The notes under the pieces were generated by a model. The model was not told the origin of the DNA, ran no database searches, and saw nothing but the letters and a program-made list of their open reading frames with translations. A stretch of 64,000 bases of DNA from a virus, in the IMG/VR virus record IMGVR_UViG_3300045988_162372; one strand, given 5' to 3'. The position numbers and the translations under genes were made by a program. Positions 7,501-54,029 of this stretch are shown here, piece after piece (positions within the stretch are counted from its first letter, which is position 1; every line of letters starts with the position of its first letter).

Positions 7501-7809
7501 ATGGAAATAATTTTCTATTTTTGGATATTACCAGTTCTGATCGGACTGGTAATATTTTACTTTTGGAAATTCAAAGGACAGACAATAAAAGATTTTGTGG
7601 ATGAAATAAGTTACTATGATAGCATAGTACCGCCATACTGGTTGTTTATTACTTTTCCAATAGTTAATATTTTATTCATTGTCGTATGGTGTGTTTTGAT
7701 GATATATAAGGGCATATTTTTTCTATATAGAAAATTTCTGCAACCTCATATCAATTACGAAAGACTGAATAATATATTAGATAAGTTTTTGAATTTAAAA
7801 ATAAAATGA
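7501..7809 (+). CDS. membrane protein
   Basis: 102 aa, two to three hydrophobic helices. Confidence 0.55.
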   Translation: MEIIFYFWILPVLIGLVIFYFWKFKGQTIKDFVDEISYYDSIVPPYWLFITFPIVNILFIVVWCVLMIYKGIFFLYRKFLQPHINYERLNNILDKFLNLKIK

Positions 7810-8039
7810 AAGATTTTGTATATTTGTGTTTAGGAATCTGGTTTATATTATGTATAGTTGCATTCTTTTATTCCAGTTATGAAAAGGATGAACAAGAGAA
7901 GTTAATCAAGATAGGTGATAAAGTTATACTTGGAAATGACACGTTGATAGTCACCAAAATAGAATTATTTGATAAAACCTATCTTCATAACGGAGCTATT
8001 ATAGACACCAATTTTGCAATAGAAAATTTGAGTAAATGA
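7806..8039 (+). CDS. membrane-anchored protein
   Basis: 77 aa, N-terminal helix; ATGA overlap. Confidence 0.55.
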   Translation: MKDFVYLCLGIWFILCIVAFFYSSYEKDEQEKLIKIGDKVILGNDTLIVTKIELFDKTYLHNGAIIDTNFAIENLSK

Positions 8040-9464: not shown

Positions 9465-9496
9465 TTTGTTTAATCTAAATAAAATAATTAACTTTG
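9465..9496 (+). promoter_or_regulatory. Bacteroidota-type promoter (-33/-7)
   Basis: TTTG-N20-TAACTTTG upstream of ATG 9531. Confidence 0.6.
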
Positions 9497-25895: not shown

Positions 25896-25926
25896 TTTGA
25901 TTTCTGTGTTGATTTCACTATCTTTG
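25896..25926 (+). promoter_or_regulatory. Bacteroidota-type promoter (-33/-7)
   Basis: TTTG-N19-TATCTTTG upstream of ATG 25957. Confidence 0.65.
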
Positions 25927-25956: not shown

Positions 25957-27162
25957 ATGGAACAAATTATCAAACATTTTACAGACAATGACGCTTATAC
26001 GTTTACTTGTCAATACTACATATTGAAGACATATCCTCGTGCTGAAGTAGAATATAAATTCTTTGATAGGAATCATACAAAGTATCCGAAAGGCTTTGCC
26101 GAGCTATTACAAGAACAGGTGAATTACATGAAAGATGTGATTATCACAGACGAAGAGATTGCATTTATGTCTAAGAATATGTATTATCTTCCTTTATGGT
26201 ATTTTACTTTCTTGAAAGGTTATAGATTTAACCCTAACGAAGTAACTATTTCACAAGATAATGAGGGTCATCTTGATATTGCGGTAAAAGGAAAGTGGTT
26301 TTCAACGATTATGTGGGAAATGCCATTACTTTCTTGTATTTCTGAATTGATGCATAAACTTAATGGTGATGAGGATAAATATAATTTAGCAACAGAATAT
26401 TGGAAAAATTATGATAAAATGACCAAAGCACTTCAAAATGGCTTAATCATCTCCGATATGGGAACAAGACGCAGATTTTCTTATAATTATCATCACAATG
26501 TAATTAGATCTTTTGTTGAAGCATCTGAAAAATCAATGGAAGAACTTTATAGTTACGGAGAATTTGTAGGAACATCAAACGTATGGCTTGCCAAAAGATA
26601 TAATTTAAGACCAATCGGTACGATGTCTCATCAAATTATTTCGTTTGAAGAAACTGTTAGTGGTATCTTTGAATGTAATAATCAAACAATGTCTAAATGG
26701 AGTGAATGTTATGATGGTTTAAACGGAACATATCTCTATGATTGTTTTGGTGATAAAGTATTCTTTAACAATTTCCAAACAAAATATGCAAAATTATTTG
26801 ATGGATTAAGAGTAGATAGTGGTGACGAGTTTGAACAAATAGAAAAAATCATTGATAAATATAAGTCTTTGGGAGTTGATCCTAAGACAAAAACTGTCGT
26901 ATTCAGCAATGGGTTGAATTTGGATAAAGCATTGGAAATACATAAATACATTGGTGGAAGAGTTAGAGATACATATGGTATCGGCACATTCTTTACTTGT
27001 GATATTGAGAATGTTAAACCTTCAAATATTGTAATCAAATTGGTAAAAGGGAGAATTACTGAACAACGTGAATGGCATGATTGTGTGAAGCTCTCCTGTG
27101 ATAAAGGAAAGACACTGGGTAATCAAGAGAAATGTAACTATTTGTCTAACATTATTAATTGA
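25957..27162 (+). CDS. pncB: nicotinate phosphoribosyltransferase
   Basis: 401 aa from ATG 25957; FTDNDAYTF, RFNPNEVTISQDNEGHLDIAVKGKW..IMWEMPLLSCISE aligns by eye with E. coli PncB ([36 protein letters not shown]). Confidence 0.85.
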   Translation: MEQIIKHFTDNDAYTFTCQYYILKTYPRAEVEYKFFDRNHTKYPKGFAELLQEQVNYMKDVIITDEEIAFMSKNMYYLPLWYFTFLKGYRFNPNEVTISQDNEGHLDIAVKGKWFSTIMWEMPLLSCISELMHKLNGDEDKYNLATEYWKNYDKMTKALQNGLIISDMGTRRRFSYNYHHNVIRSFVEASEKSMEELYSYGEFVGTSNVWLAKRYNLRPIGTMSHQIISFEETVSGIFECNNQTMSKWSECYDGLNGTYLYDCFGDKVFFNNFQTKYAKLFDGLRVDSGDEFEQIEKIIDKYKSLGVDPKTKTVVFSNGLNLDKALEIHKYIGGRVRDTYGIGTFFTCDIENVKPSNIVIKLVKGRITEQREWHDCVKLSCDKGKTLGNQEKCNYLSNIIN

Positions 27163-27169
27163 TGAAATT

Positions 27170-27979
27170 ATGAAAAATAACAAACTTATACTTTGTGGAA
27201 TTTTTGGAGATATTATCGGAAAGCATTTCGAGTTTTTGAGAATAGCCAATAAGACAAAAGACTTTGAATTGTTTAGTAAAGATTCAACATACACAGATGA
27301 TACAATGTGTACGTTGGCTGTAATGAAGTGGCTCATTGATGATGTAAAGAAGCCCTTAGCACCTATTATGCGTGAAACATGTAATGTTGAACCATATAGA
27401 GGATATGGTGGAATGTTTCGTAAATGGTTACATGATGAAACTATGAGTGCCTACGGCAGTTTTGGGAATGGCAGTGGAATGCGAGTTGCACCTGTAGGTT
27501 GGTATGCCAAGACGGAAGAAGAGTGTCTTGAACTTGCAAAGCAATCTGCGATAATCACACATAATCATCCAGAGGGTATAAAGGGTGCGCAAGCTATTGC
27601 ATTGTCTGTATTTATGGCAAAGAATGGTAAGAGCAAACAAGATATTAAAGAAAGAATAACAGAGTTGTTCCACTATAATTTGGATAGAACACTCGATGAA
27701 ATTCGCCCTCACTATCATTTTGATGTAACTTGTCAAGGCTCTGTTCCAGAAGCAATTATTTCTTTCCTTGAAAGTACATCCGTCGAAGATGCTGTAAGAA
27801 ATGCTGTTTCACTTGGTGGTGATACTGACACACAAGGAATAATGGCAGGAGCTATTGCAGAAGCATATTACAAAGATTATGGAGATAGCATTATCTATGA
27901 CAAGACGTTGGAATATCTTCCACAAAAACATCTTGATGTAATAAAGAAATTTAACGAGAAAGTAAAAAATGCACAGTAA
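27170..27979 (+). CDS. ADP-ribosylglycohydrolase (ARH/DraG family)
   Basis: ATG 27170; GDIIGKHFEF, YTDDT, GNGSGMRVAPVG, THNHPEGIKGAQA, GGDTDTQGIMAGAIAEAYY. Confidence 0.85.
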   Translation: MKNNKLILCGIFGDIIGKHFEFLRIANKTKDFELFSKDSTYTDDTMCTLAVMKWLIDDVKKPLAPIMRETCNVEPYRGYGGMFRKWLHDETMSAYGSFGNGSGMRVAPVGWYAKTEEECLELAKQSAIITHNHPEGIKGAQAIALSVFMAKNGKSKQDIKERITELFHYNLDRTLDEIRPHYHFDVTCQGSVPEAIISFLESTSVEDAVRNAVSLGGDTDTQGIMAGAIAEAYYKDYGDSIIYDKTLEYLPQKHLDVIKKFNEKVKNAQ

Positions 27980-28880
27980 TAGATTTATTGTTAAGGAAGA
28001 ACTTTCTGTATCTGATACAGTTGTAAAAATAACAAATGAAATATATACCCAATTGCTTAATAAATTAAGTATTGGAAAATCTTTTATTTCAAAAGAACGA
28101 AATGTTATAATTAAAAAAGGTATTTTTGATTATCAAACAGCAGGAAAACTCAAGAATACATCTTTTATTAAAGTAAAATATGTCGTTTATTATTTTAATG
28201 ATGAACAAGAACATCAAGCATATATGAAATACGGTTATTTCAGAATGAATTCTTCTGCTGATTATGAAAATAGGGTAATTAATTTATATTTATCAATGGT
28301 AGATAACAAACCTACGATTGATTTCAAGAGTGATATACAACACGAAGTTAATCATATATTCCAATATGATAATGGTCAGCAAAAGGATGAGGATTTCTAT
28401 AAAAAGATTATTGATTTGAACAAAAGTAAGGTTAAAATGGATAGAATCATCGCTCGTGCGTTGTATTACACTTTCCCAACGGAACAGGATTCTTTTGTTT
28501 CTCAATATTATGCTTATTTAAAACGAAATAATATCCCTATCAAACAAGCAATTAATTATCGTTATGATAAAAATTGTCCTTATTATGATTTTGATACTCT
28601 TTTTGATAATATTGATGATATAAGTGGAGAAATAACTGATGAATATACACAAGATAAATTAGGTATCAGTTCTAAAAAATTATTCAACATCTTGAATAAT
28701 GCAGATGATAGATTTACTAACAAATTAGGAAAAGTAATAATGCGTTATGTTCAAGAAAAAGAACTAAATGAAGATTTCGAACACAGCGAAATTCATCTTA
28801 AAATTGATCCTCGTTTATCATTTGTATTAGAATGTTATAAGAAAGGAATTAATGAAGAAGAAAGTGAGTATTTTGAATAA
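27969..28880 (+). CDS. HExxH (gluzincin-like) protein, paralog of 38651..39694
   Basis: QHEVNHIFQ followed about 40 aa later by YYTFPTEQDSF; overlaps ARH gene end by 11 nt (same operon). Confidence 0.45.
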   Translation: MHSNRFIVKEELSVSDTVVKITNEIYTQLLNKLSIGKSFISKERNVIIKKGIFDYQTAGKLKNTSFIKVKYVVYYFNDEQEHQAYMKYGYFRMNSSADYENRVINLYLSMVDNKPTIDFKSDIQHEVNHIFQYDNGQQKDEDFYKKIIDLNKSKVKMDRIIARALYYTFPTEQDSFVSQYYAYLKRNNIPIKQAINYRYDKNCPYYDFDTLFDNIDDISGEITDEYTQDKLGISSKKLFNILNNADDRFTNKLGKVIMRYVQEKELNEDFEHSEIHLKIDPRLSFVLECYKKGINEEESEYFE

Positions 28881-28888
28881 TATGTGTA

Positions 28889-28921
28889 ATGACTTAGAAA
28901 ATTAGTCCTAAGTCATTTTTA
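28889..28921 (+). terminator. rho-independent terminator
   Basis: ATGACTTAG / CTAAGTCAT 9-bp stem followed by TTTTT. Confidence 0.7.
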
Positions 28922-28939: not shown

Positions 28940-28971
28940 TTTGTTTCTTTCATTGAAAAATGTTATCTTTG
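28940..28971 (+). promoter_or_regulatory. Bacteroidota-type promoter (-33/-7)
   Basis: TTTG-N20-TATCTTTG, about 98 nt upstream of ATG 29069. Confidence 0.65.
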
Positions 28972-29017
28972 CAACGTGAGATGTAAAAAAAAATAATGTT
29001 TAACAATAAAAGGATAT

Positions 29018-29061
29018 GTTTCAATCCCTCTCCATCCTGAAGGACGGAGTTCCCTTGAAAC
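29018..29061 (+). promoter_or_regulatory. structured 5' leader hairpin
   Basis: outer stem GTTTCAA/TTGAAAC, 5x5 pyrimidine internal loop (TCCCT/TTCCC), inner stem CTCCATCC/GGACGGAG with TGAA loop; ends 7 nt before the start codon. Confidence 0.5.
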
Positions 29062-29068
29062 AAATTAT

Positions 29069-30079
29069 ATGGAAAATAATGAACTTTTGTATGACAAGGA
29101 TTTGGCTAATCGCTTTGTAAGTGATTATAAGTTGCCTATACAGCTAACTGATAAGAAGTATTTCTTTTATTTTCTTTCATTATATGAGAAAGAATACAAA
29201 TCATTAACAAAATATATACAGCTTTGTAATTTAATCAAAGAGAAGTATTACGATTCACCTAAGCTGTTCTTGGAGAAATATTACGAAGTGCGTGATGATA
29301 TTATAAAAACTGTCGAGGCAAGTAAGGCATATCAGAAGTTTAATAATATGGATATGTCTGTGTTTTCTATTAAAAATAAAAAGAATATCACAACAAACAA
29401 TATCTATAATGAGAATAATGCAGGGCGTATTTTCGTTTCATTTGACTTAAAGAAGGCTAATTTCCAAGCATTGAAGTATGTTAACCCTGACATCGTATTA
29501 AATGCTGATACTTATCAGGATTTTATTAAGAAATTCACAGATTTGGATTATGTTGCAGAAAGCAAGTATACAAGGCAAGTAGTGTTTGGCAAAATGAACC
29601 CAAAACGTCATATTACTGTTGAAAAGTATATGATTGATAAGGTATACGAATATATCACCGAAACCCATCATCTTACGAATTGTGTATCTATGTCAAATGA
29701 CGAACTTGTATTTGATATGGGTGAGGCTAAAAAACTTGACAGTCTTGCTATTCATAGTATTAATATTACTTGTGAGATGATTAGACAATTCATCCAAACA
29801 ATGTTGGGATTTGAAATGAATTTAGAAGTTTTCAAACTGCATAAATTACAACTTTGCTGTAACAAGTTCAAGAGAAGCCCTTATTATTATAAGGAATATT
29901 TGAATACAGAAGAACCAAAAGGAAAACTGATGTGCGTACCTATGAATTACTTTGCAATTGTATATAAGCTGTTTAATAATCTACCTTTGCAAGAAGAAGA
30001 CTATCATTTCGATTATGAAGGATTGGATAGCAAATATTGTGAGAATTTTTACCTTCTAACTGATTTTCAAAATAACTAA
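29069..30079 (+). CDS. compact family-A-polymerase-like protein (tentative)
   Basis: IFVSFDLKKANFQAL (motif A-like), SKYTRQVVFGKMNP (motif B-like), SMSNDELVFDMG (compare Pol I QVHDELVFE), MNLEVFKL; only about 85 aa between the A and C aspartates. Confidence 0.4.
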   Translation: MENNELLYDKDLANRFVSDYKLPIQLTDKKYFFYFLSLYEKEYKSLTKYIQLCNLIKEKYYDSPKLFLEKYYEVRDDIIKTVEASKAYQKFNNMDMSVFSIKNKKNITTNNIYNENNAGRIFVSFDLKKANFQALKYVNPDIVLNADTYQDFIKKFTDLDYVAESKYTRQVVFGKMNPKRHITVEKYMIDKVYEYITETHHLTNCVSMSNDELVFDMGEAKKLDSLAIHSINITCEMIRQFIQTMLGFEMNLEVFKLHKLQLCCNKFKRSPYYYKEYLNTEEPKGKLMCVPMNYFAIVYKLFNNLPLQEEDYHFDYEGLDSKYCENFYLLTDFQNN

Positions 30080-30083: not shown

Positions 30084-31130
30084 ATGGATAATAATAAAAC
30101 AAGTATTATATTTTTTGGTTCTGGGGATTTTCCTTACCCTACATTTAAGACCATTGTAGAGAATGAAGTTTATGATGTGAAAGGTTTGGTTACTTCTCCG
30201 TATAAGCCGTATTTTTATTCTGAGACATTGAAAGATGTAGCAGAAAGAAACAATATACCTGTGTTTTCAACACATAAGCCAAATTGTGCAGAGCTTGTCG
30301 AATGGTTGAAAGAAAAGGAAACCGACATTTTCTGTGTGATTTCTTATAAATTCCTTTCAAATGATATATTGAGAATTCCAAAGATAACAGCATTTAATGT
30401 ACACGCTTCATTACTGCCACTACTTCGAGGTGCTGCCCCTATTAACTGGGCAATCAGATATGGTTTTAAAAATACTGGTTTAACCTCATTTGTATTAAAT
30501 GAACATATTGATTGCGGAGAGATTATAAATAATATAAGTATCCCGATTGAAAGTAATGATGATTATGGTGTAGTTTTCAATAGATTATCTGTTCTTAATG
30601 TTGGCTTTACCATTGAAACAATATCACGTTTAAGAAAGTCTGATTGGAGACGTTATTTAATACTTCAACCAGATCATATTGAAGATGATATGTTCATGAA
30701 TGCTCCAAGATTGAATAATGATAATTGTACATTAAATACACATATATTTTCTGCATTTAATTATGCAATACCACAACTTTATGATGTGATTAGGTCGCTA
30801 TCACCAAATATAGGGTTAAATATTACATTAAGGGCAATGAATGAAGAAAGAAATGGTTTCTGTTGCCTTAAAAAATATGATGCCAAAATATATAAAGCTA
30901 AACTTTTTCCTGAGATACCAGAAGAACATAAAAGTTATTGCAAGAGTTATTCAAACGTGGTAACTGATGGTAAATCTTTCATGTACTTAGTTAATAATTT
31001 AAACACACAAATTATATCCATTGAAGAAATACAATTAGCAGGAAAGAAAAAACTTAATATAAAGGATTTTGTTGCAGGTTTTCAATGGGCAAGAGATAAA
31101 AATGTATATTTGCTAATAACTGGTAGATAA
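30084..31130 (+). CDS. methionyl-tRNA formyltransferase-like formyltransferase
   Basis: IIFFGSGDF..., NVHASLLPLLRGAAPINWAI, TGLTSFVLNEHIDCGEI match the Fmt N-terminal domain; C-terminal extension present. Confidence 0.75.
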   Translation: MDNNKTSIIFFGSGDFPYPTFKTIVENEVYDVKGLVTSPYKPYFYSETLKDVAERNNIPVFSTHKPNCAELVEWLKEKETDIFCVISYKFLSNDILRIPKITAFNVHASLLPLLRGAAPINWAIRYGFKNTGLTSFVLNEHIDCGEIINNISIPIESNDDYGVVFNRLSVLNVGFTIETISRLRKSDWRRYLILQPDHIEDDMFMNAPRLNNDNCTLNTHIFSAFNYAIPQLYDVIRSLSPNIGLNITLRAMNEERNGFCCLKKYDAKIYKAKLFPEIPEEHKSYCKSYSNVVTDGKSFMYLVNNLNTQIISIEEIQLAGKKKLNIKDFVAGFQWARDKNVYLLITGR

Positions 31131-31146: not shown

Positions 31147-32358
31147 ATGACATTAAATTTAACGTATAAAGGAAATAAATGGTTGAGTGGGGCAATTCCT
31201 GCTCTTTTGATACACTGCTGCATTGGCAGTGTATATTGTTGGTCTTTGATTAAGAACAACATCGCAATTGAAATGGGTGTGGCTTCTTCCCAAATTGAAT
31301 TTGCATTTTCATTGGCAATTTTCTTTTTGGGCATGAGTGCTGCGTTCTGTGGCAGATTCATCGAAAAGAACGTGAAGTATTCTTCACTTATTTCAGCGAT
31401 TTGCTTTACTTCTGGATTGTTCTTGACAACAGTTGCGATGCATTTGCATAGTATACCCTTGCTGTTCTTATCTTACGGATGTATCATGGGTATCGGATTG
31501 GGTATAGGCTATTTAAGTCCAGTCAAAACATTGATGTTATGGTTCAGCGAACATAAGGGCTTGGCAACTGGTATTGCTATTAGTGGCTTTGGATTATCAA
31601 AAGCAATTCTTTCACCATTCATTGAATGGTGTAATGCAAATTATTCCATTTATGTAACATTGTGGGCTATTTCATTGATAAGTATGTTCTGTATGTTATT
31701 GGCTTCAGCACTTATTAAAAAACCTGAAGGATGGGTGGAAACTACTGATAAATTTTCGATAAAGGATGTGTGGAAAATAATTACAAATTCAGAGTATATT
31801 AAGATATGGCTGATATTTTACATTAACATAACCTTGGGTTTATGTCTGATAAGTTTTGAGAAAGATTTATGTCTTACTAACGGCATAGTTGCTGTGGGCA
31901 TTATATCGTCATTAACGGCATTGTTCAATACTATTGGTAGATTTGGCTATTCTTCCTGTTCGGACTTTTTAAAACGTAAGGAAATAATCTATGTTATTAT
32001 ATTTGCAAGCAGTTTGATAGTATGCGCCATATATGGCTTAAATCTGATTAATATTGGGGTTGCAACAATACTATTGCTTTGCGTTATTAACGCAGGATAC
32101 GGTGGAGGGTTTTCTACTTTACCCACATTACTACAATCCAAATTCGGTATGGGGAATATCTCAACTATTCATGGTTTAGCATTAAGTGCTTGGGCGTGGG
32201 CTGGGCTTTCAGGAAATCAGTTATCTAATCTTGTGATTAATAGAATGGGATTAGGATATGAACACCTGATAACAATAGTTGCTTGTTTATATTGCATTAG
32301 CTTGATAATTACATTAACTATCAAAAATAAAATATGGAAAATAAAGAGAAACAATTAA
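31147..32358 (+). CDS. MFS transporter (oxalate/formate antiporter-like)
   Basis: 403 aa, about 12 hydrophobic helices; N-terminal GSVYCWS motif typical of OFA/YhjX-type MFS. Confidence 0.75.
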   Translation: MTLNLTYKGNKWLSGAIPALLIHCCIGSVYCWSLIKNNIAIEMGVASSQIEFAFSLAIFFLGMSAAFCGRFIEKNVKYSSLISAICFTSGLFLTTVAMHLHSIPLLFLSYGCIMGIGLGIGYLSPVKTLMLWFSEHKGLATGIAISGFGLSKAILSPFIEWCNANYSIYVTLWAISLISMFCMLLASALIKKPEGWVETTDKFSIKDVWKIITNSEYIKIWLIFYINITLGLCLISFEKDLCLTNGIVAVGIISSLTALFNTIGRFGYSSCSDFLKRKEIIYVIIFASSLIVCAIYGLNLINIGVATILLLCVINAGYGGGFSTLPTLLQSKFGMGNISTIHGLALSAWAWAGLSGNQLSNLVINRMGLGYEHLITIVACLYCISLIITLTIKNKIWKIKRNN

Positions 32359-39731: not shown

Positions 39732-39762
39732 TTTGGTATGATTATTTAATATCATATCTTTG
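39732..39762 (+). promoter_or_regulatory. Bacteroidota-type promoter (-33/-7)
   Basis: TTTG-N19-TATCTTTG upstream of ATG 39791; preceded by a T12 run (39708-39719). Confidence 0.65.
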
Positions 39763-39790: not shown

Positions 39791-41122
39791 ATGAAATTTG
39801 TAGAATTATTTGATAACGATATGAAACCAAAGTGGGATATAATAGAAAACATCCCACAGTTTGCAGCACTTAAGACAACCAAGCAAAGCAATACTTGGCA
39901 TAAAGAGGGTGATGCTCTTAGGCATACACGGCTTGTTGTTGAAAATATGCAAAGAGAATTGGATGAACAGAATATTGACAATCATTCTGCATATTATCTT
40001 GTAATGATGTCTGCCGCACTTTGTCATGACTTAGGCAAGGCAACTTCAACCAAATGGGATAAAGAGAAGAATGACTATGTATGTAATCATCATGGACAAG
40101 CAGGTGAGAATATTACCCGTATGTTGTTTTATGATGAGAAATTTATCATAAGGGAACTTGTATGCTATATGGTACGTTGGCATATGAATTTACATCATAT
40201 CTTGGATGATGAGGAAAAAGTTGATGAGAAACTGATAAATATGGCTCACGGATGGGTATCAATTCAAGATATGTTACTTCTCAACAAATGTGATTCTCTT
40301 GGAAGCCAGAATGACATTGAAACAAGAGAATTCCTTGAGAACAGATGGGATACCATTAAGGAAAGAGCAGAGAAGTTGGATGTATTTGATATGGTCTATG
40401 ATGATTATAATACGAAACATATATGTGAAAATCTGAATACTGCCCTAAATGCATCTAATCCAATTGCTCCATTTTCATTTATGACACTAAATTGGAGGGA
40501 TGTGCGAGAGTCTTGTAGTAATATATTGAGGCATACTCCTATAAATTGGAAAACAAATAATATAAAGATATTAAATCAATTCACTGTCTTTATGATGGTA
40601 GGTATTCCTGGAAGTGGTAAAGATACTATTATACGAAAATACTTAAATGATATTCCAACTGTATGTAGAGATGATATCCGCACTGAAATAGGTATTCAAG
40701 GAGAGAAGCCTATGGGTAATAAAGAACAGGAGAAGAAAGTGACTCAAATATTCGAGGAAAGAATGTTGGAATATTGCAAACAAGGTAAGAGTTTTGTTAT
40801 TAATAATACAAACCTTAAAAAGCAATACCGTAACAGATTCTTGGATATCATAAAGCCTTATAAACCAGTCGTGATTTATATTTATGTGGAAGCTCCGTCA
40901 ATAGTTGATAATTTTGCAAGACGTGCTGGACAAATAGATAAGGATATAATACGCAGGATGGCTTCAAACTTTGATTTCCCTTATCCTACGGAATATACTA
41001 CTTTGTGGCTCGATATACAAGGTGAACCACAATTCACTGAAATATATGGTAACGCAATGATGAGTCATATAATTCAAGATATGATGCAACCAAGAAAGAA
41101 GAAAGATGAACAAGAACATTAA
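39791..41122 (+). CDS. HD-Pnk: HD phosphoesterase fused to P-loop polynucleotide 5'-kinase
   Basis: N-terminal H..(ALRHTRLV)..CHDLGKA..HHG HD domain; C-terminal MMVGIPGSGKDT Walker A, CRDDIR, NNTNL; same architecture as bacterial HD-Pnk end-healing enzymes. Confidence 0.8.
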   Translation: MKFVELFDNDMKPKWDIIENIPQFAALKTTKQSNTWHKEGDALRHTRLVVENMQRELDEQNIDNHSAYYLVMMSAALCHDLGKATSTKWDKEKNDYVCNHHGQAGENITRMLFYDEKFIIRELVCYMVRWHMNLHHILDDEEKVDEKLINMAHGWVSIQDMLLLNKCDSLGSQNDIETREFLENRWDTIKERAEKLDVFDMVYDDYNTKHICENLNTALNASNPIAPFSFMTLNWRDVRESCSNILRHTPINWKTNNIKILNQFTVFMMVGIPGSGKDTIIRKYLNDIPTVCRDDIRTEIGIQGEKPMGNKEQEKKVTQIFEERMLEYCKQGKSFVINNTNLKKQYRNRFLDIIKPYKPVVIYIYVEAPSIVDNFARRAGQIDKDIIRRMASNFDFPYPTEYTTLWLDIQGEPQFTEIYGNAMMSHIIQDMMQPRKKKDEQEH

Positions 41123-41369
41123 TCTATTTGGTGAGGACATCACTAAAGAAATCGAAGCAGAGGAAAGGAAACATAAATATTCAGAAAGGGCTAAGAAAGC
41201 GGCCGAAACAAGGAAAAGACATAAGGCTGAACAAGAAGCCCTTTTTGATAAAATGTTCACCATTGCGAGAAGTGAATGTGATTTATTTGGTAATAAATAT
41301 ACCGACGAGGAAAGAAAAGAAGCTGAGAAATATATTAGGGAAAACTTTAAAAAAAGAAATAAGAAATGA
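41106..41369 (+). CDS. hypothetical Lys/Glu-rich protein
   Basis: 87-aa ORF. Confidence 0.5.
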   Translation: MNKNINLFGEDITKEIEAEERKHKYSERAKKAAETRKRHKAEQEALFDKMFTIARSECDLFGNKYTDEERKEAEKYIRENFKKRNKK

Positions 41370-41785
41370 TAGTATCAGAAGAATTTTTGCTTGAGAAATT
41401 AAAAGGATACAAACAGAAAACTTGGTCAGGACATTGGACTAACAAGGGAAACATCCACTTTATTTTGTGGAATTTGTTAGGAATATTCAACGGACATTAT
41501 AATGTGGTTGTTAATCCAGAAACCTTTGAATATCGAGTTAAAAAGCATAGTGAATATGGTAATCTTGTTTCATACCTACCAACACAAGAAACAACCGTTT
41601 GGACAAAAGAAAATATGTCACAAGAACAAATAGATTATATTGAGCCTTGTATTGCCAAAACTTTGTATGATTTGCTATACCCTTCGATTTTTTCTTATAA
41701 TACAAAAGAAGGTTATTCCCAATGGTTATCCAATCTTCTTGTGGATGATGATACGTTTGAATTTACCTGGAAATGGCGAGAATAA
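41366..41785 (+). CDS. hypothetical protein
   Basis: 139-aa ORF, ATGA overlap. Confidence 0.55.
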   Translation: MIVSEEFLLEKLKGYKQKTWSGHWTNKGNIHFILWNLLGIFNGHYNVVVNPETFEYRVKKHSEYGNLVSYLPTQETTVWTKENMSQEQIDYIEPCIAKTLYDLLYPSIFSYNTKEGYSQWLSNLLVDDDTFEFTWKWRE

Positions 41786-41802
41786 ATTAAAAAATATAAA
41801 AT

Positions 41803-42489
41803 ATGGAATATACTCTTGAAACAAGTTCAGAAACTTTTATTAATAAAATAAAAAAATTTCTTCATTATGGAAACATAATGATAGATTTGGAAACATTGTC
41901 TACCAGAACCAATGCATCCATAATAAGCGTTGCTGCCGTAGAATTTGGATTAAATGGTGATACTGGCAGGGAAATGATATTAAAAATCAAACCATCAGAA
42001 TGGGGAAAATATGATAGACATATTGATGGTAATACAATCGCATGGTGGATGGGACAAGATGCAGAGGCTGTTAAAAACCTTTTTGCAAAGGACGGGGAAG
42101 ATTTCACGTTGCTTGATGCCTTATCTCATTTGTCTGATTTTGTAAAAGAATGTGATATGCCTATACCAATTACGCAAGAACAAGAAATGACTGCCAGTTT
42201 TATGAGCAGTTTCAGATACAGTGATGTAAAAGACAAAAGGATTAAAGTATGGGGAAATGGTTCTACAATGGATATTACAATTCTTCAATCTGCTTATGAG
42301 TATTTCAATATGCAGATACCGTGGCAATATTGGGCTGTAAATGATGTGCGTACTATTGTGGATTTAAACCCTGAAATTAAAAAGAACTGTACTTTTGAAG
42401 GTGTGAAACATAATCCTATTGACGATTGTAATTATCAGATTAAATATATGACTGAAACAATTAAAAATATTAGAGAAAATAGATATTAA
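41803..42489 (+). CDS. DEDDh 3'-5' exonuclease (Rv2179c-like exoribonuclease type)
   Basis: MIDLETLS (DxE), WGNGSTMDITIL (D), HNPIDDCNYQ (H-x4-D). Confidence 0.75.
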   Translation: MEYTLETSSETFINKIKKFLHYGNIMIDLETLSTRTNASIISVAAVEFGLNGDTGREMILKIKPSEWGKYDRHIDGNTIAWWMGQDAEAVKNLFAKDGEDFTLLDALSHLSDFVKECDMPIPITQEQEMTASFMSSFRYSDVKDKRIKVWGNGSTMDITILQSAYEYFNMQIPWQYWAVNDVRTIVDLNPEIKKNCTFEGVKHNPIDDCNYQIKYMTETIKNIRENRY

Positions 42490-42545
42490 TTTTTTTTACA
42501 AAAATTATATGTTGAAAATATTTTCGCATTAAAAAATTTAAAAAT

Positions 42546-42983
42546 ATGGCACTTTTGAAACTTATAGTTTATGCATTGTTAATTTGTACTGGGGTAATAG
42601 GGTTAATTTGCTTCGGATACTATTTATTATTCATCTTAAAAACTAATTTCGCAGAAACAAGAAAATATTTGGATCAATTTCCTGATAAATTTAAAAATTA
42701 TACTGATGAATATCATTCTTATTGTAATGGTGATATTCTAATACACTTATATGATAATAGGGATACAAAACGTTTGTACAATAGATATACAGTTACGATT
42801 GAATATAATTTATTGGGTTACATTATATATAATGATGCTATTAATATAATACGAGTACCGTATCCGTTTTTCAAAAAGGAAAGAAAGTGGCTTAATAATT
42901 TATTTAGACAAAAATATGAAAGAGTTAAAAAGCAAGAGATGAAAGAAATGAACAAATTAATAGAAGTAATGAAAAATAATTAG
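42546..42983 (+). CDS. membrane-anchored protein
   Basis: 145 aa, N-terminal helix. Confidence 0.55.
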   Translation: MALLKLIVYALLICTGVIGLICFGYYLLFILKTNFAETRKYLDQFPDKFKNYTDEYHSYCNGDILIHLYDNRDTKRLYNRYTVTIEYNLLGYIIYNDAINIIRVPYPFFKKERKWLNNLFRQKYERVKKQEMKEMNKLIEVMKNN

Positions 42984-42987
42984 AAAT

Positions 42988-43215
42988 ATGGAAAAGAAAG
43001 AACTAAACGAACACAATGAGTGTTATTATTGCAAACTCATGTACCGTATTCCTGGTGATGCGCATATTGGTTGTAAGAAGTTTTGTGAAGGTAATAAATT
43101 TAATGCACATGGCATTAGATGTGGATGGGTCGTAATTATGCCGATGCTTGACCTTTGCAATTTTGATCCTGTGTGGAAAGAAACCATGTGTCCGAATTTT
43201 GAAGAAAATAAATAA
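42988..43215 (+). CDS. hypothetical Cys-rich protein
   Basis: 75-aa ORF with seven Cys. Confidence 0.5.
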   Translation: MEKKELNEHNECYYCKLMYRIPGDAHIGCKKFCEGNKFNAHGIRCGWVVIMPMLDLCNFDPVWKETMCPNFEENK

Positions 43216-43235
43216 AACATTAAAATCATACAAAC

Positions 43236-43826
43236 ATGAAAAAGTTAAAAGAATGTTATAATTTGTATATTAACGAATGTATTGATAAAGATGCACTTAA
43301 AAGTCTGAATGAAGATATTATCAAGTATACAACGGAGATTGAGGAGATTTTATGTGAAAATGAGAATGAATTAAGAAGTTGTGGATATCCTATTCCAGAT
43401 AGAAATAATGTCACTAAACCTATTTTCTATCTTCACATAAATACTTTTGGCGGTTCTGTATATGACGGTCTTGGAATATACAACATCATCAGGAAATTGT
43501 CAGAAGATTATAAAGTCATCGCCTATTGTCGTGGCTATATCATGTCTATGGGTATTCCTATTATCCTTGCTGCGACAGAACGTTATTCATACCCTGATAC
43601 CACGTTTATGATACATGAAATAAGTAGTTTCTATTGGGGGAAATTGACTGAGGCAAAAGAAAACCTGCAAGAAATTGAACGTCTAAACAAAGCTATATGT
43701 GATATTATTGTTAGACACACTTCAATTACACAAGATATGTTGGATGATTGGTATAAACATAAGAAAGATGTGTTTATGTCGGCACAACAAGCACTTGATT
43801 ATAAGTTGATTGATAAAATACTCTAA
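43236..43826 (+). CDS. clpP: ClpP-like serine protease (S14)
   Basis: HINTFGGSVYDGLGIYNII, GYIMSMGIPIILAA (Ser), TFMIHE (His). Confidence 0.75.
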   Translation: MKKLKECYNLYINECIDKDALKSLNEDIIKYTTEIEEILCENENELRSCGYPIPDRNNVTKPIFYLHINTFGGSVYDGLGIYNIIRKLSEDYKVIAYCRGYIMSMGIPIILAATERYSYPDTTFMIHEISSFYWGKLTEAKENLQEIERLNKAICDIIVRHTSITQDMLDDWYKHKKDVFMSAQQALDYKLIDKIL

Positions 43827-43854
43827 TCAGTTATATTTTTTTAACGAAATATAT

Positions 43855-43885
43855 TTTGGTATAATTCTCTAATGTTGTACATTTG
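43855..43885 (+). promoter_or_regulatory. Bacteroidota-type promoter (-33/-7)
   Basis: TTTG-N19-TACATTTG upstream of ATG 43922. Confidence 0.6.
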
Positions 43886-43921
43886 CAATGTGAATAATAA
43901 AATACATATTGTAAATTAAAA

Positions 43922-44161
43922 ATGGAAAACAATGTTAGAGAATTTTTGGTATTGGAAGGTTATACAAATGATTTGTTGATGATAAATTCTTCAGGCTCAA
44001 TGAAAATGACAAGACTTATCAAGCTTGACCCAAACAATAAAGAATTGGATGAAGAAATTGTGGATATTGCTGTTACATCAACAAATGAATATGGAACGCA
44101 TCCGTTATTTGATGAGTTGCTTGGAAAGAAAATAAGATTAAAGGTAGAAATTTTGAAATAA
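43922..44161 (+). CDS. hypothetical protein
   Basis: 79-aa ORF after promoter. Confidence 0.5.
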   Translation: MENNVREFLVLEGYTNDLLMINSSGSMKMTRLIKLDPNNKELDEEIVDIAVTSTNEYGTHPLFDELLGKKIRLKVEILK

Positions 44162-44176
44162 TAAAAAGAGAATTGA

Positions 44177-45043
44177 ATGGCAATAAACCTTTTAAAAATT
44201 AACGCAGAAGCCGTACTATGTACGGGTGATTTGCATGGAAACCTGAATAGCATTGGATACCAGATTAAACAGTTTGGTATCCAAAATTCAGTTCTGATAT
44301 GTTGTGGGGATATTGGATTAGGCTTTAATAAGTTGGAATATTATAAACAATACTTGAATAAGTTGAAGAAGGTATTGACCAAATATAATGATTATGTCAT
44401 TCTTCTTAGGGGTAATCATGATGATAAGGCGTATTTCGACAATAAGCTCATTAATGATAAAAGGATTAAGGCGGTTTCTGATTATACAATAGTGCAGGTA
44501 TATCCTATGGATGATACAGAATGCCTTTCTCTTCCATACAATGTGTTATGTGTCGGTGGAGCTACCTCAATTGACAGAATGCACAGAATTAGTGTAAACA
44601 ACAAACTGTTGATGGAATATTCCAAACATCATAATATGGAAACTTTGGAGGAAGCAAAAAAGAATTGTCTGAAATGTTATTGGGAAGACGAAGCACCTGT
44701 ATATGATGAAGAGACACTGAATGAGATTAAGGAACAAGGAATTACCATTGATGCTGTAACAACACATACTTGTCCATCTTTCTGTCAACCATTGACTAAG
44801 GATGGCATTCGATATTGGATGCAGTTTGACACTAATCTTGAAAAAGATATTGACAATGAACGCAACGTGATGGATAAACTTTATGATAAGTTGATAGAGG
44901 ATAAACACCCATTATCTGTATGGTGTTATGGCCATTATCATTATCATCATAATGACAGTATTAATGGAATAAGATATTACCTCCTTGATATGGAGAGAAA
45001 TGGAAAGATGGATATAATAACGATATATAAAAGTGGAAAATAA
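44177..45043 (+). CDS. calcineurin-like metallophosphoesterase (lambda-PPase-like)
   Basis: CTGDLHGN, CCGDIGLGF, LRGNHDD, GHYHYHH. Confidence 0.8.
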   Translation: MAINLLKINAEAVLCTGDLHGNLNSIGYQIKQFGIQNSVLICCGDIGLGFNKLEYYKQYLNKLKKVLTKYNDYVILLRGNHDDKAYFDNKLINDKRIKAVSDYTIVQVYPMDDTECLSLPYNVLCVGGATSIDRMHRISVNNKLLMEYSKHHNMETLEEAKKNCLKCYWEDEAPVYDEETLNEIKEQGITIDAVTTHTCPSFCQPLTKDGIRYWMQFDTNLEKDIDNERNVMDKLYDKLIEDKHPLSVWCYGHYHYHHNDSINGIRYYLLDMERNGKMDIITIYKSGK

Positions 45044-45347
45044 GATAGATTATAAAGAACAAATATTTCAGTTAAAGCATTTGCATCAACAAACAGGACA
45101 AGTAATTGATAAAATGTCGTTGTTGGAAATAGATGCAGAACATATGTATGCAAGAAACATTCTTTATCTATTATTTTCAATAATGAGGAAGAATTTGAAT
45201 ACATTGGATGAGTTTTTGCAAATACTAAATGACATAGAACATGAACAAGAGGAAGGACATAAACTTATCAAACGAATATACTCTAAAACTTGGTTCGCAA
45301 ATTCTTCTGGGATAGAAATTTCAAATGATAACGAGACAAAAACTTAA
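45033..45347 (+). CDS. hypothetical protein (GTG start uncertain)
   Basis: 104-aa ORF; alternative ATG at 45114. Confidence 0.4.
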   Translation: MENKIDYKEQIFQLKHLHQQTGQVIDKMSLLEIDAEHMYARNILYLLFSIMRKNLNTLDEFLQILNDIEHEQEEGHKLIKRIYSKTWFANSSGIEISNDNETKT

Positions 45348-45353
45348 TATATA

Positions 45354-45887
45354 ATGAAAGGAATAATTGCAATAAAAAATATATCGGATGTAATCACAAA
45401 TTCTTCAAGCGAAGTGTTTATGTTACAAACTGATGGTGTCATTAAAGGTATTAAAAATAACATTGAAAAATATCACAATGAACATATGTGGTATCACAAC
45501 GATTTTTCTGAACTTCCTGATGATATTAAACAGCTATTAGGCGGTGAGGATATTTTAAATGAAGCGGAAAAAATGCTCAATGAATCTTCTGGCGAAGGTG
45601 GAGAAATTAACATTTATGATTGGGAGGACGCATATAACGGATATTGCAAAATATACAAAAAACATTCCAAGAGTTTCACACCCGAACAGTGGGCAAAAAA
45701 AATTGATATACCATTGGAAGAATTGAAGAAAATCATTGTGGTTGATGTGGATTGGGCAGCTAAAAGTACTATCTCCATGTTAAAAGAACGTTATAATGTT
45801 GTCTTTGAAGGAGATATTTATTACGAATCAAAATATAGTGATGCCTTTGCGTATGCTTCCTATGCTAACGGAGAAAACTATCTATAA
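45354..45887 (+). CDS. ITNSSSE-motif family protein, copy 1
   Basis: N-terminus MKGIIAIKNISDVITNSSSEVFML; C-terminal IIVVDVDW. Confidence 0.6.
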   Translation: MKGIIAIKNISDVITNSSSEVFMLQTDGVIKGIKNNIEKYHNEHMWYHNDFSELPDDIKQLLGGEDILNEAEKMLNESSGEGGEINIYDWEDAYNGYCKIYKKHSKSFTPEQWAKKIDIPLEELKKIIVVDVDWAAKSTISMLKERYNVVFEGDIYYESKYSDAFAYASYANGENYL

Positions 45888-45896
45888 CAAAAATTT

Positions 45897-46580
45897 TTGA
45901 ATATGAAACACTACGATTCTATTCCAAGTATCAAAGAGGACAAATCTTTGGTCGGAGAAAATATTTTTGCTTTTAATAAATTGGACGGACAAAACTTCTG
46001 TGCAAAATATTCTCCAAAAGTGAATGAATTTACAATGTTTGGCAGTAGAACACAAAATGTGGATGAAACTTCCGAACAATTCGGAGATGCTGTTAGATAT
46101 TTCAAAGCTAACTTGGAGACACCGTTGAAAGAAGTTATTAAAAATAACAAAGGGAAAAATCAAATCTTTCATGGTATTGAAGAGATAACATTTTTCTTTG
46201 AATGGTATGGTGAGCATAGTTTTGCTGGTTTTCATCAGCCTAATGAAACATTAAAACTTGCATTAATAGATGTTTTTTTGAAAAAGAAAGGTTATATTGA
46301 GCCTAAAATATTTGTTGATATATTCTATGATAATCCATCAATAGAAACACCATTATTGGTATATAGTGGAAAATTGACAAATGATTTCATAAAGGCAATT
46401 CAAGAAAATGACTATACAGAAGCAAATTGTAACTTAAATGAGGTAAAAGAAGGCGTTGTCTGCAAACGTTCAACACTTCTGAAAGGGCAAAGACTTCCAA
46501 TGGTAAAGATTAAAACACAATGGTGGCTTGATAAATTGCATAGCACATTCTCAGAAGAACAATGCAAGAAATTAGAATAA
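45897..46580 (+). CDS. Rnl2-like RNA ligase nucleotidyltransferase
   Basis: motif I FNKLDGQN, III FFFEWYGEHSFAG, IV LALIDVF, V EGVVCK, then VKIKT. Confidence 0.7.
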   Translation: MNMKHYDSIPSIKEDKSLVGENIFAFNKLDGQNFCAKYSPKVNEFTMFGSRTQNVDETSEQFGDAVRYFKANLETPLKEVIKNNKGKNQIFHGIEEITFFFEWYGEHSFAGFHQPNETLKLALIDVFLKKKGYIEPKIFVDIFYDNPSIETPLLVYSGKLTNDFIKAIQENDYTEANCNLNEVKEGVVCKRSTLLKGQRLPMVKIKTQWWLDKLHSTFSEEQCKKLE

Positions 46581-46622
46581 GATAATAAAAAGGATTTATT
46601 AACAATTAAAATTGAATATAAT

Positions 46623-48167
46623 ATGACAAAAGAAATTTTCACGCTGTCAGAAAATGCGAAACTGGAATATTCTTGTACAGTAGTTCAAATTGGGGAAGTA
46701 AAACCTGTTGAAGGTTCAGACTTTCTTGGTTCAACACTAGTAAATGGTAATCCTATAGTTGTGCGCAAAGACCAAATCAAGGAGGGTGATATAATGATAT
46801 ATGCCCCTATTGAAACTGTGCTTAACAAACAATTTCTCTCTGTAAACAACCTATTTGAAATTGGAGAAAAAGAACTGAATTCAAATTTTAAGGAAGTTCA
46901 AGCACTTATCAATGAGGGAAAGAAAGAAGATGCTAAGAAAAAGGTGGGCTTCTTTAATAAGCATGGTCGTGTGAAGCTTATCCGCTTGCGTGGGTGTCCG
47001 TCTATGGGTTTCCTTATTGAAAAGGAGTCACTTGTAAAGTGGAAACCTAAGTTGCAGGACGTTGATTTCTCTCAATACGTGGATAAGGACTTTGATACCA
47101 TTGATGGGGAACTCTTTGTCAAGGTATATGTGCCTTATGTACCACCTATAAGAACAAGGGATAAATCAGCAAAACGAGACAAGAAATTAAAAAGATTTTC
47201 AAGACTTATTGAAGGTGAATTTAAGTTTCATTACGATACACAACAACTTGCTCGTAACATTCATCTGATTAAGCCAGATGATAAAGTGTTAATAACCAAC
47301 AAATTACATGGCACGAGCTTCATTTGCGCTAACATATTGACAAAGAAACCTGTTCAGCTTTCCAACATTCAAAAGCTCTTTAACAAGATGTCTAATAAAA
47401 AGATTAAGAAGTTAAAAAAGCAGAATGCTACTCACTATGCAGATAAGAAAAGATTGGAAAATCAAATCAAGCAGTATGAAAAGATTAAGAGACCTACATA
47501 TACTGTCGGATATGGTAATATCTATTCTTCTCATACTGTCATTAAAAATCAGTATATTAATAGTGGTGTAAATAGTGGCTTCTATGGAGTGGATATTTGG
47601 GGAGTATACGATAAGATTATGAAACCTTATATTCCACAAGGTATGACGTTGTATGGCGAAATCTGCGGTTATCTTGACGCTACTGGCAAGATGATACAGA
47701 AGGGTTACGACTATGGCTGCAAAGTAGGCGAAAATTTTTTGATGCCGTATCGTATCACCACTACAAAAGAAGACCATACTAAGAAGGAATGGACTGTGAA
47801 AGAGGTATATGATTGGACTGTCAAACTCTTGAAAGAACATCCTGAATTAAAAAAGAATGTAAGACCTATTACAATTCTTTACAGTGGTACATTAAAGGAC
47901 TTGTATCCAGAAATTAGTGTTTCTGATCATTGGCATGAGAATGTTCTTGAAACTATGAGAAATGATAAGGAACATTTCGGAATGGAAGAGCTTGAACCTG
48001 AATGTATCAATAAAGTTCCGAGAGAAGGAATTGTCTTGAGAATTATGGAAGACCCTGTGGCTGAGGCATTTAAGTTGAAGAGTTTCCGCTTTCTTGACAG
48101 AGAGAGGTCTGAAATGGACAAGGGACAAGTTGATATGGAAATGGCTGATGCCTACACTGAACAATAA
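46623..48167 (+). CDS. RNA ligase with N-terminal OB-like domain (Rnl5-like architecture)
   Basis: N-terminal VVQIGEVKPVEGSDFLGSTLVNGNPIVV (OB/tRNA-binding-like); motif I TNKLHGTSF, III TLYGEICGY, V EGIVLRI..FKLKS. Confidence 0.7.
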   Translation: MTKEIFTLSENAKLEYSCTVVQIGEVKPVEGSDFLGSTLVNGNPIVVRKDQIKEGDIMIYAPIETVLNKQFLSVNNLFEIGEKELNSNFKEVQALINEGKKEDAKKKVGFFNKHGRVKLIRLRGCPSMGFLIEKESLVKWKPKLQDVDFSQYVDKDFDTIDGELFVKVYVPYVPPIRTRDKSAKRDKKLKRFSRLIEGEFKFHYDTQQLARNIHLIKPDDKVLITNKLHGTSFICANILTKKPVQLSNIQKLFNKMSNKKIKKLKKQNATHYADKKRLENQIKQYEKIKRPTYTVGYGNIYSSHTVIKNQYINSGVNSGFYGVDIWGVYDKIMKPYIPQGMTLYGEICGYLDATGKMIQKGYDYGCKVGENFLMPYRITTTKEDHTKKEWTVKEVYDWTVKLLKEHPELKKNVRPITILYSGTLKDLYPEISVSDHWHENVLETMRNDKEHFGMEELEPECINKVPREGIVLRIMEDPVAEAFKLKSFRFLDRERSEMDKGQVDMEMADAYTEQ

Positions 48168-53990: not shown

Positions 53991-54029
53991 AAAAAACAGA
54001 TACTTAAATCAGTATCTGTTTTTTTTTTT
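53991..54029 (+). terminator. rho-independent terminator
   Basis: AAAAAACAGATACT / AGTATCTGTTTTTT stem, loop TAAATC, T run extending to 54029. Confidence 0.75.

Follow-up and report, generated by a model that had tools for sequence, protein, structure and literature searches.

A compact palm-domain protein of a virus-restricted family, predicted to be a polymerase-type nucleotidyltransferase

The IMG/VR virus record IMGVR_UViG_3300045988_162372 was analysed over a stretch of 64,000 nt (hereafter the window, to which all coordinates refer unless another locus is named), in which the gene at 29069-30079 on the plus strand encodes a compact protein of 336 residues. A preliminary description, made from the sequence alone, had read this protein as a minimal family-A DNA polymerase. 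Structure prediction, conservation and comparative genomics indicate a right-hand polymerase palm whose nearest solved relatives appear to be the Y-family polymerases, and we consider it highly probable that the protein is an active polymerase-type nucleotidyltransferase. It represents a large, unannotated and apparently previously undescribed virus-restricted family within the known right-hand palm polymerases. That it is a two-metal-ion nucleotidyltransferase, with Y-family enzymes as nearest relatives, acting in the repair of RNA or tRNA ends is a reading to which we give about an even chance.

The AlphaFold2 model of the full-length protein computed with the family alignment (predicted local distance difference test, pLDDT, 94; predicted TM-score, pTM, 0.88) and a model of the core alone (residues 105-270; pLDDT 94.1, pTM 0.87) both display the order β1-[helical insert]-α1-β2-β3-α2-β4 of a classic RRM-like right-hand polymerase palm, the same arrangement as described for such polymerases in PMC7824862. 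The insert between β1 and α1 comprises about 50 residues and is helical, with short helices within residues 130-174, while a long helix (178-200) precedes the β2-β3 hairpin and another (225-246) follows it. As regards membership in the classic RRM-like right-hand palm superfamily, the palm order and the acidic residues at the end of β1 and at the β2-β3 turn are all present. In these confident models, the Asp of motif A (D126) and D211/E212 of motif C occupy the positions of the catalytic carboxylates, as the preliminary description had anticipated, and the segment MNLEVFKL, compared there with the strand that follows motif C in Pol I, is the strand after the post-hairpin helix (β4). The palm is preceded by an all-helical N-terminal domain, which in the model is possibly thumb-like or substrate-binding, and the C-terminal ~70 residues form a small β-rich segment carrying D311.

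The open reading frame itself was confirmed with the coordinates and length given earlier and an ATG start. The four motif strings quoted in the preliminary description are found at residues 120-135, 165-178, 205-218 and 250-257, and its numbering of D126 and D211/E212 is correct. The spacing between the two Asp residues is 85 (D126 to D211), compared to 177 in E. coli PolA (D705 to D882) and 95 in DinB (D8 to D103), which agrees with the value of about 175 quoted for Klenow and with the proposal of drastically reduced fingers. No exonuclease or other Pfam domain was detected in the protein, consistent with the reported absence of an exonuclease domain.

Conservation, read from alignments of 35, 57 and 351 homologues, is concentrated on the same positions. 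In the largest alignment D126, N131, R169, G174 and D211 are present in 351/351 sequences, followed by K166 and S124 (348/351 each), E212 (346/351), D311 (343/351), S165 (341/351) and F314 (323/351), so that both acidic motifs proposed earlier are kept. As judged from the sequences, these motifs lie far beyond chance and their conservation is the signature of a catalytic centre.

Comparison of the full-length model with the PDB using Foldseek returned nearly exclusively right-hand polymerases or their derivatives, including primase-associated pseudo-polymerases: herpes simplex virus (HSV) UL8, the reverse transcriptases of retrons and diversity-generating retroelements, Pol ι, Dpo4, Pol κ, Pol II, Pol α and RB69, with KlenTaq at rank 45. 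Structure prediction and structural search thus both return a polymerase fold, and the claim of a polymerase-type palm holds. Since long alignments to UL8 and PolB with a high root-mean-square deviation (rmsd) prevailed among the full-length results, the core was re-modelled alone. Its top 50 PDB matches consist of 43 Y-family chains, 5 family-A chains, 1 Cas10 and 1 UL8. The Y-family chains (Pol ι, Dpo4, Dbh, E. coli Pol IV, MsDpo4 and Pol κ) align with TMq values of 0.43-0.51, probabilities of 0.95-1.00 and 13-18% identity, compared to TMq values of 0.36-0.38, probabilities of 0.80-0.87 and an rmsd of ~11 Å for the family-A chains (Bst and Taq).

Profile comparisons point in the same direction. 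Neither the target nor 57 family members match Pfam DNA_pol_A at E <= 1. One member (P0171) matches Pfam IMS with 23.7 bits for a gathering score of 23.2, over only 60/148 profile positions, and two others (P0052 and P0078) do so marginally (E = 0.078); the target and the other tested members have no match. All three alignments run from the S-x-D-E hairpin (motif III) through the helix behind it to the strand after that. For profile-profile alignment, reference profiles were derived from E. coli DinB, UmuC and PolA, T7 gp5 and 160 viral loci gathered with them, the PolA profile comprising 36 viral or bacterial sequences; hhalign lacked the sensitivity to compare the family profile with DinB, UmuC or PolA of E. 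coli as single sequences. With full-length profiles, hhalign matched only the motif C region, in the correct register and without significance (P = 0.032 for the Y family, P = 0.022 for family A); global mode and a control alignment of the PolY and PolA profiles produced junk only. With the core profile, the Y-family alignment extends over 119 columns (P = 0.0034) and places D126 on DinB D8 together with D211/E212 on D103/E104. The corresponding PolA alignment (P = 0.031, probability ~2%) is limited to motif C and places D126 on a non-catalytic Asp. In the alignments of motif C, the D211-E212 hairpin falls on SLDEA of DinB and on VHDE of PolA.

The proposed equivalence with motif B of family A is unproven. 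The family carries S-K-x-x-R-x3-F-G in place of R-x3-K-x3-F-G-x2-Y-G, the consensus of the region being S-K-Y-x-R-Q-V-I-F-G-x-L-N-P-K-R without Y-G, and the two are not brought together in any profile alignment. The H-D-E hairpin of motif C and the Asp of motif A are present but do not discriminate, because several palm families share them. Taken together, these individually weak but concordant lines of evidence suggest that the nearest solved relatives are Y-family polymerases and not family A, and the earlier family-A assignment is not upheld: DNA_pol_A is not matched, the PolA profile aligns at motif C only, and Y-family chains outnumber family-A chains 43 to 5 among the core matches.

The protein is not a true member of the Y family either. 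It shares with Y-family enzymes the RRM-type palm, the Asp at the end of β1, the S-x-D-E hairpin, small fingers, the lack of an exonuclease, a size of ~340 aa and a similar Asp spacing. However, Y-family polymerases possess a little finger (PAD) and a C-terminal helical thumb, which the target lacks: no IMS_C or IMS_HHH match was found in the target or in the tested members, and the Y-family Foldseek alignments end at 146-198 columns. Their fingers contain β-strands, whereas the insert of the target is all-helical; conversely, the conserved 105-residue N-terminal helical domain and the C-terminal D311 segment are features of the target that they do not have. At the steric gate five residues after the motif A Asp (D+5), Y-family enzymes carry an aromatic residue (DinB F13, Dpo4 Y12) and Klenow E710, while the target family has Asn (N131) in 351/351 sequences, the register being set by sequence; DinB D8/F13 and Klenow E710 were confirmed in the actual sequences. 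Finally, Y-family genes are linked to SOS or replication genes, in contrast to the virus-restricted and tRNA-repair-linked family described here.

A word-indexed search recovered 617 homologue clusters at 90% identity, some of them on contigs of up to 370 kb; none of the 617 has a Pfam domain, and source annotations name them only "hypothetical protein". An exhaustive HMMER profile search extended the family to 1,741 clusters at 50% identity (E <= 1e-3), of which 727 reach E <= 1e-30. Members are nearly all 300-350 aa long, and those phage proteins that exceed this range, to a maximum of 419 aa, bear extensions without a Pfam domain. Neither the target nor the family profiles gave a match in Pfam, PHROGs, NCBIfam, PADLOC or the PDB sequences. 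Among one genome each from 185,579 prokaryotic species, only 7 family loci were found, all on contigs of metagenome-assembled genomes (MAGs), and several of these have the same phage-type neighbours. The gene is present in 3/50,697 deposited phage genomes, in each case unannotated or hypothetical. One is Salicola phage SCTP-2 (gp208, "hypothetical protein"), whose genome measures 440 kb; the others are an uncultured phage of 642 kb and a contig of faecal origin. Thus the family is in essence a viral one, nearly absent from cellular genomes. A literature search, which covered work on jumbo phages, TV-Pol, the Thg1 palm, RlaP, Pandoravirus annotation and the Viral AlphaFold Database, found no description of it; the RNA-repair survey of Burroughs & Aravind (2016), which lay outside that search, might mention it.

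A search of BFVD, a library of predicted structures of viral proteins, with the full-length model probably extends the distribution to viruses of eukaryotes, with 11 giant-virus proteins matched at E-values of 1e-7 to 1e-15 and TMq values of up to 0.79. The matches come from klosneuviruses, Tupanvirus, Moumouvirus, pandoraviruses, Clandestinovirus and Medusavirus. The best one, A0A1V0SKG9 of Klosneuvirus KNV1, aligns over 330 columns (E = 1.4e-15, TMq 0.79, 21% identity) and is one of two annotated as "R3H domain protein"; others are Hyperionvirus A0A3G5ABH4, Clandestinovirus A0A8F8PN35 and Medusavirus A0A3T1CWG1 (695 aa), the one annotated as "DEDDy 3'-5' exonuclease". The structural match covers the full length, and these proteins most likely belong to the same family, by a link that is structural only. 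They differ from the target family in having eukaryotic hosts and, in some cases, in being annotated with R3H (single-stranded nucleic-acid binding) or DEDDy exonuclease modules.

Gene neighbourhoods were surveyed with phmmer within ±10 kb, using annotated neighbours as queries. The survey covered the window together with four look-up loci and 80 loci from IMG/VR, which fall into 24 clusters at 50% identity. Of the genes for a CCA-adding enzyme, RlaP, RNA ligase and YqeY, one or more occur at <=10 kb from the family gene in 17/24 clusters, at <=3 kb in 12/24 and at <=500 bp in 10/24. The CCA-adding enzyme is found at -10 bp upstream or at +2, +3, ~+200 bp or +2.3 kb downstream, RlaP overlaps the family gene or lies 31 bp off, the RNA ligase begins at +19 bp, and YqeY is placed at +4, -6 or -121 bp. 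Such varied arrangements between clades argue against simple inherited synteny. The MAG loci show the orders RNA ligase-target-Fmt, CCA-YqeY-NADAR-target and target-RlaP. Two clusters that have none of the four genes contain other tRNA-related genes, namely a genuine Thg1 at 1.3 kb (L223) and the peptidyl-tRNA hydrolase PTH2 at 2.2 kb (L237). NAD-salvage and ADP-ribose genes (NAPRTase, NADAR and ARH) also recur near family members, as would be expected in the counter-defence islands of jumbo phages (PMC7824862). The suggestion made in the preliminary description, that of a non-replicative enzyme acting on RNA or tRNA ends, fits these neighbourhoods.

A separate observation concerns the CCA-adding enzyme. 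In L001, a 137-aa open reading frame (7572-7985) directly 5' of the family gene matches part of a 600-aa CCA-adding enzyme in L168 (5189-6991). These sequences suggest that, in some phages, the enzyme is split or its C-terminal module is detachable.

Because the family gene lies persistently beside genes for the CCA-adding enzyme, RlaP, RNA ligase, YqeY, Thg1, PTH2 and Fmt-like proteins, a role in RNA-end repair appears the most likely. In the mechanism that we infer from the model and the conservation, which extends to catalysis, sugar preference, RNA substrate and template dependence, D126 at the end of β1 and D211/E212 at the hairpin turn would bind two Mg2+ ions. K166 and R169 of the insert would hold the incoming nucleotide by its triphosphate, for which the mini-fingers helix is the predicted binding site. 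N131 at D+5 would correspond to the sugar steric gate of A-family, Y-family and reverse transcriptase polymerases (Klenow E710, DinB F13), where a small polar residue could tolerate or hydrogen-bond the 2'-OH; use of ribonucleoside triphosphates (rNTPs) is predicted because N131 is small and polar at this position. The enzyme would extend or fill in short patches at the 3' ends of damaged tRNA or of other RNA, and would not replicate the genome, as part of a phage counter-defence RNA-repair toolkit. A more specific version, which we consider unlikely though worth stating, is a dedicated RNA-repair enzyme: a compact polymerase, directed by a template and using ribonucleotides, that would rebuild the 3' strand of tRNA acceptor stems trimmed by nucleases, or other recessed 3' ends of RNA. 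The 5' strand would then serve as the template and the product would be passed to the adjacent CCA-adding enzyme, making the reaction a 3'-side counterpart of Thg1-like 5'-end repair.

Several observations weigh against an RNA-repair polymerase related to the Y family. No Foldseek match to the PDB reaches E <= 1e-3, with either the full-length or the core model, and TMq does not exceed ~0.5, so that placement at the family level depends on many concordant but individually weak matches; the hhalign figures are pairwise P-values accompanied by low HH probabilities (2-9%). The gate argument for N131 derives from the D+5 register and not from structural superposition. At least 5/24 clusters have no RNA-repair neighbour among the genes tested, and the SCTP-2 gene is located among hypothetical genes, ~8 kb from a topoisomerase II gene. 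The neighbourhood evidence is guilt by association within counter-defence islands that also hold NAD-salvage genes, and related phages are not independent samples. The DEDDy annotation of the Medusavirus protein fits a DNA polymerase equally well.

This last point bears on a rival that we regard as unlikely, a stripped-down Y-family-like DNA polymerase that would bypass lesions or fill short gaps in the DNA of phages or giant viruses, and whose RNA-repair neighbours would merely share with it a general accessory or counter-defence island. The nearest solved structures are indeed translesion polymerases, the P0171 match is to IMS, both catalytic positions are in register with DinB, the length (695 aa) and the 3'-5' exonuclease annotation of the Medusavirus structural homologue suggest a fusion, and a topoisomerase gene lies nearby in SCTP-2 and L223. 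However, the little finger (PAD) that Y-family enzymes need to grip DNA is missing, an invariant Asn replaces the aromatic gate that excludes rNTPs, and no repeated association with genes for replication or recombination was observed, whereas the tRNA-repair linkage is tight and varied in arrangement, down to <=10 bp from the CCA-adding enzyme. Less probable by our estimate is a palm enzyme that does not extend polynucleotides. It might be a nucleotide cyclase or oligonucleotide synthase (GGDEF, Cas10 or class III cyclase-like) that would make or mimic a signalling nucleotide to counter host defence, or else an enzyme of the Thg1 type with 3'-5' addition. These enzymes have the palm fold in common with the target, one Cas10 chain occurs among the top 50 core matches, and the islands contain NAD and ADP-ribose genes (NAPRTase, NADAR and ADP-ribosylglycohydrolase). 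Thg1 and its relatives (TLP) further resemble the target as compact palm enzymes with an S-D-E-type hairpin, a tRNA-repair context and an occurrence in jumbo phages and giant viruses (PMC2904730, PMC7824862). Yet the β1-α1 insert, 50 residues long here, is of a kind that true polymerases typically have and that Thg1, GGDEF and Cas10 lack (PMC2904730), no Thg1 or GGDEF Pfam match was found, and polymerase matches outnumber cyclase-type ones by ~49 to 1. Identity with Thg1 is ruled out by the insert, the lack of a Pfam Thg1 match and the separate Thg1 gene near the L223 member; the family and Thg1 are not equivalent, since a genuine Thg1 is encoded beside a family member in that locus.

A minimal family-A polymerase (PolA, TV-Pol or CcPol-like) with truncated fingers is in our judgement very improbable, although parts of the protein recall it. 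Motif C reads S-N-D-E-L-V-F in the target and Q-V-H-D-E-L-V-F in Klenow, and hhalign selects exactly this segment; the all-helical insert with basic residues and F-G recalls the O-helix, the N-terminal helical domain precedes the palm like the thumb of PolA and TV-Pol (PMC2579912), and PolA accounts for five chains of the top 50 core matches. Family A, TV-Pol and SCCmec CcPol have in common with the target an N-terminal helical module before the palm, helical fingers after β1 and the D-E of motif C, and TV-Pol likewise has no nuclease domain. Against this, the 57 members tested lack a DNA_pol_A match, the PolA profile leaves D126 off the motif A Asp, the PolA structural matches are fewer and worse than the Y-family ones, and K-x2-R replaces the defining R-x3-K. 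TV-Pol was described as a protein of 400-600 aa with R-x3-K in a helix-turn-helix (HTH) fingers module and a β-hairpin Arg, from which PolA is recovered by PSI-BLAST or HHpred and which is linked to a D5 helicase, integrase or transposase (Iyer, Abhiman & Aravind 2008, PMC2579912). None of these features applies here: judged against the published description, the family is set apart by its 300-350 aa, K-x2-R, lack of PolA recovery by profile and RNA-repair neighbours. The fingers of the target are about half the size of even those of TV-Pol and have no O-helix Y-G. A polymerase-type nucleotidyltransferase closest to the Y family and acting on RNA ends is the reading that we retain.

The features of the gene, its surroundings and the loci named above are collected in the table. 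The 188-nt spacer 5' of the gene folds with z = -3.7 and contains, directly after the stop codon of the upstream gene, a terminator-like hairpin followed by a T-run. This hairpin, which a simple terminator scan missed (few G-C pairs, 10-nt loop), would close the upstream transcription unit. It is followed by a promoter match, identified with the consensus of Bacteroides promoters, from which a 5' untranslated region (UTR) of ~90 nt is predicted. The pattern TTTG-N19-21-TAnnTTTG occurs 20 times in the window compared to 2.68 expected (~7-fold), a number reached in 0/100 shuffles, and 17/20 matches are on the coding strand, mostly upstream of plus-strand genes (sites include 948-979, 2244-2274, 9465-9496, 25896-25926, 28940-28971, 39732-39762 and 43855-43885). 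This enrichment makes a Bacteroidota host probable, whose sigma factor the phage would use. Since the promoter precedes the gene and the terminator-like hairpin lies before it, the gene is predicted to head its own transcription unit, in keeping with its earlier placement as first in an operon. The "long structured leader" of the preliminary description is borne out in part: the spacer does fold, but its structure consists of the hairpin of the upstream gene plus one 45-nt hairpin in the short 5' UTR. The last 60 nt before the ATG, where this second hairpin lies, fold with -17.7 kcal/mol (z = -4.7). It is present in a single copy in the window and missing from 11/12 orthologous upstream regions, hence lineage-specific, and its only Rfam hit is CRISPR-DR9 on the minus strand, with 23 bits for a gathering score of 45. 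Because it is not conserved at orthologous loci and has no Rfam match above threshold, it is not a family feature; a conserved riboswitch-like leader was ruled out on the same grounds. It may serve to regulate translation or represent a solitary repeat-like element.

The second gene of the predicted unit begins 5 nt past the stop codon of the target and, as described earlier, encodes an Fmt-like formyltransferase with both Fmt domains (Formyl_trans_N 9e-19, Formyl_trans_C 5e-7). Its match to TIGR00460 fmt (1e-39, 136 bits) falls under the equivalog cut-off of 201.5 bits, and the presence of both domains with a score of this order suggests that the protein may act on a substrate other than initiator Met-tRNA. 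The same target-then-Fmt order is seen in L169, L170, L171, L172, L175 and L252; the linkage is limited to the clade of the window, 1/24 clusters. The third gene encodes an MFS transporter, which directly follows the Fmt-like gene also in L169 (9701-10897) and L170 (9428-10615); a transporter of this type, with 12 transmembrane helices, is an unusual phage cargo. The 303-aa protein encoded directly upstream of the target has no match in Pfam, PHROGs, NCBIfam or PADLOC, and its homologues are also found 5' of the family gene in L171, there two in tandem. Paralogues of the target at 15781, 19394 and 39197, suggested by short DNA repeats matching the motif B and motif C codons, were ruled out by tblastn and by the family HMM run against six-frame open reading frames.

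The window has a G+C content of ~30%, with genes nearly all on the plus strand up to ~54 kb. Its own RNA-repair content comprises two RNA-ligase-domain genes, an HD-kinase, two metallophosphatases and an Rv2179c-like 3'-5' exoribonuclease; it contains no tRNA genes, and neither a CCA-adding enzyme nor RlaP was found in its annotated part. A TnpB/IS605 OrfB-like gene at 3875-5095, with HTH_OrfB_IS605, OrfB_IS605 and Cas12f1-like TNB domains, lies in a local G+C peak (0.37 compared to ~0.30) and probably represents a mobile element inserted into the phage genome. A strand switch and a sign change of the G+C skew occur at ~54-55 kb, and the minus-strand block that follows (~54000-64000) contains a TelA-like gene (57590-58714) and a weak HECT_2-like match (55983-57563).

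Table. Features of the target gene, of its surroundings in the window and of two other loci
Feature	Position	Strand	Basis or remark
NAPRTase, upstream	25957-27162	+	Pfam
ADP-ribosylglycohydrolase (ARH), upstream	27167-27979	+	Pfam
303-aa protein directly upstream of the target	27969-28880		no assigned function
Terminator-like hairpin, 10-bp stem AATGACTTAG/CTAAGTCATT, then T-run	28888-28917	+	sequence and fold
Bacteroidota-type promoter: -33 TTTG, 20-nt spacer, -7 TATCTTTG	28940-28971	+	pattern match, repeat family D2
45-nt hairpin in the 5' UTR, near-perfect, GTTTCAATCCCTCTCCATCC...GGACGGAGTTCCCTTGAAAC, ending 8 nt before the ATG	29017-29061	+	fold
Target coding sequence, compact palm-domain nucleotidyltransferase or polymerase-like protein	29069-30079	+	open reading frame, homologues, models, Foldseek
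N-terminal all-helical domain, residues 1-105 (helices 10-99), conserved R15-F16-x2-D19-x3-P23	29069-29383	+	secondary structure, conservation
Palm strand β1 (120-127) ending in D126, then start of helix (130-138) with N131, Q133	29426-29473	+	models, conservation
Mini-fingers helix (166-174), S165-K166-x2-R169-x3-F173-G174-x2-N177-P178	29561-29602	+	model, conservation
Palm β2-β3 hairpin (205-208, 212-219), with D211-E212 at its turn; motif C, or motif III in Y-family terms	29681-29722	+	model, conservation, alignments
Start of palm strand β4 (250-263), MNLEVFKL	29816-29839	+	models
C-terminal segment E309-x-D311-x-H-F-x-x-E-G, D311 nearly invariant	29993-30022	+	conservation
Fmt-like formyltransferase, second gene of the target's operon	30084-31130	+	Pfam
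MFS transporter, third gene of the unit	31147-32358	+	Pfam MFS_1 6e-26
HD + AAA_33 kinase	39791-41122		RNA-repair cluster (39791-48167)
Rv2179c-like 3'-5' exoribonuclease	41803-42489		RNA-repair cluster
ClpP-like protease	43236-43826		RNA-repair cluster
Metallophosphatase	44177-45043		RNA-repair cluster
RNA-ligase-domain genes, two	45897-46580 and 46623-48167		RNA-repair cluster
Thg1, genuine	L223 7912-8712	-	near family member
PTH2	L237 13285-13998	+	near family member

If the protein is active, it would represent a new family in the right-hand polymerase superfamily, comprising ~1,700 clusters and confined to large viruses of bacteria and eukaryotes. It would also be an unrecognized addition to the phage RNA-repair and counter-defence toolkit, alongside Pnkp, RNA ligases, RlaP, the CCA-adding enzyme and Thg1, and would bear on the minimum size of a functional polymerase core. 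A Y-family-like mini-polymerase that uses rNTPs would be a potentially useful reagent, and the presence of the gene (gp208) in a cultured phage, Salicola phage SCTP-2, makes the prediction directly testable. A template-dependent 3' tRNA-editing activity, the enzyme for which has long been unidentified, has been reported in some animal mitochondria. Refilling of acceptor stems, if true, would constitute a new activity class for a Y-family-like palm, common to jumbo phages and giant viruses, and would offer a candidate model for this mitochondrial editing.

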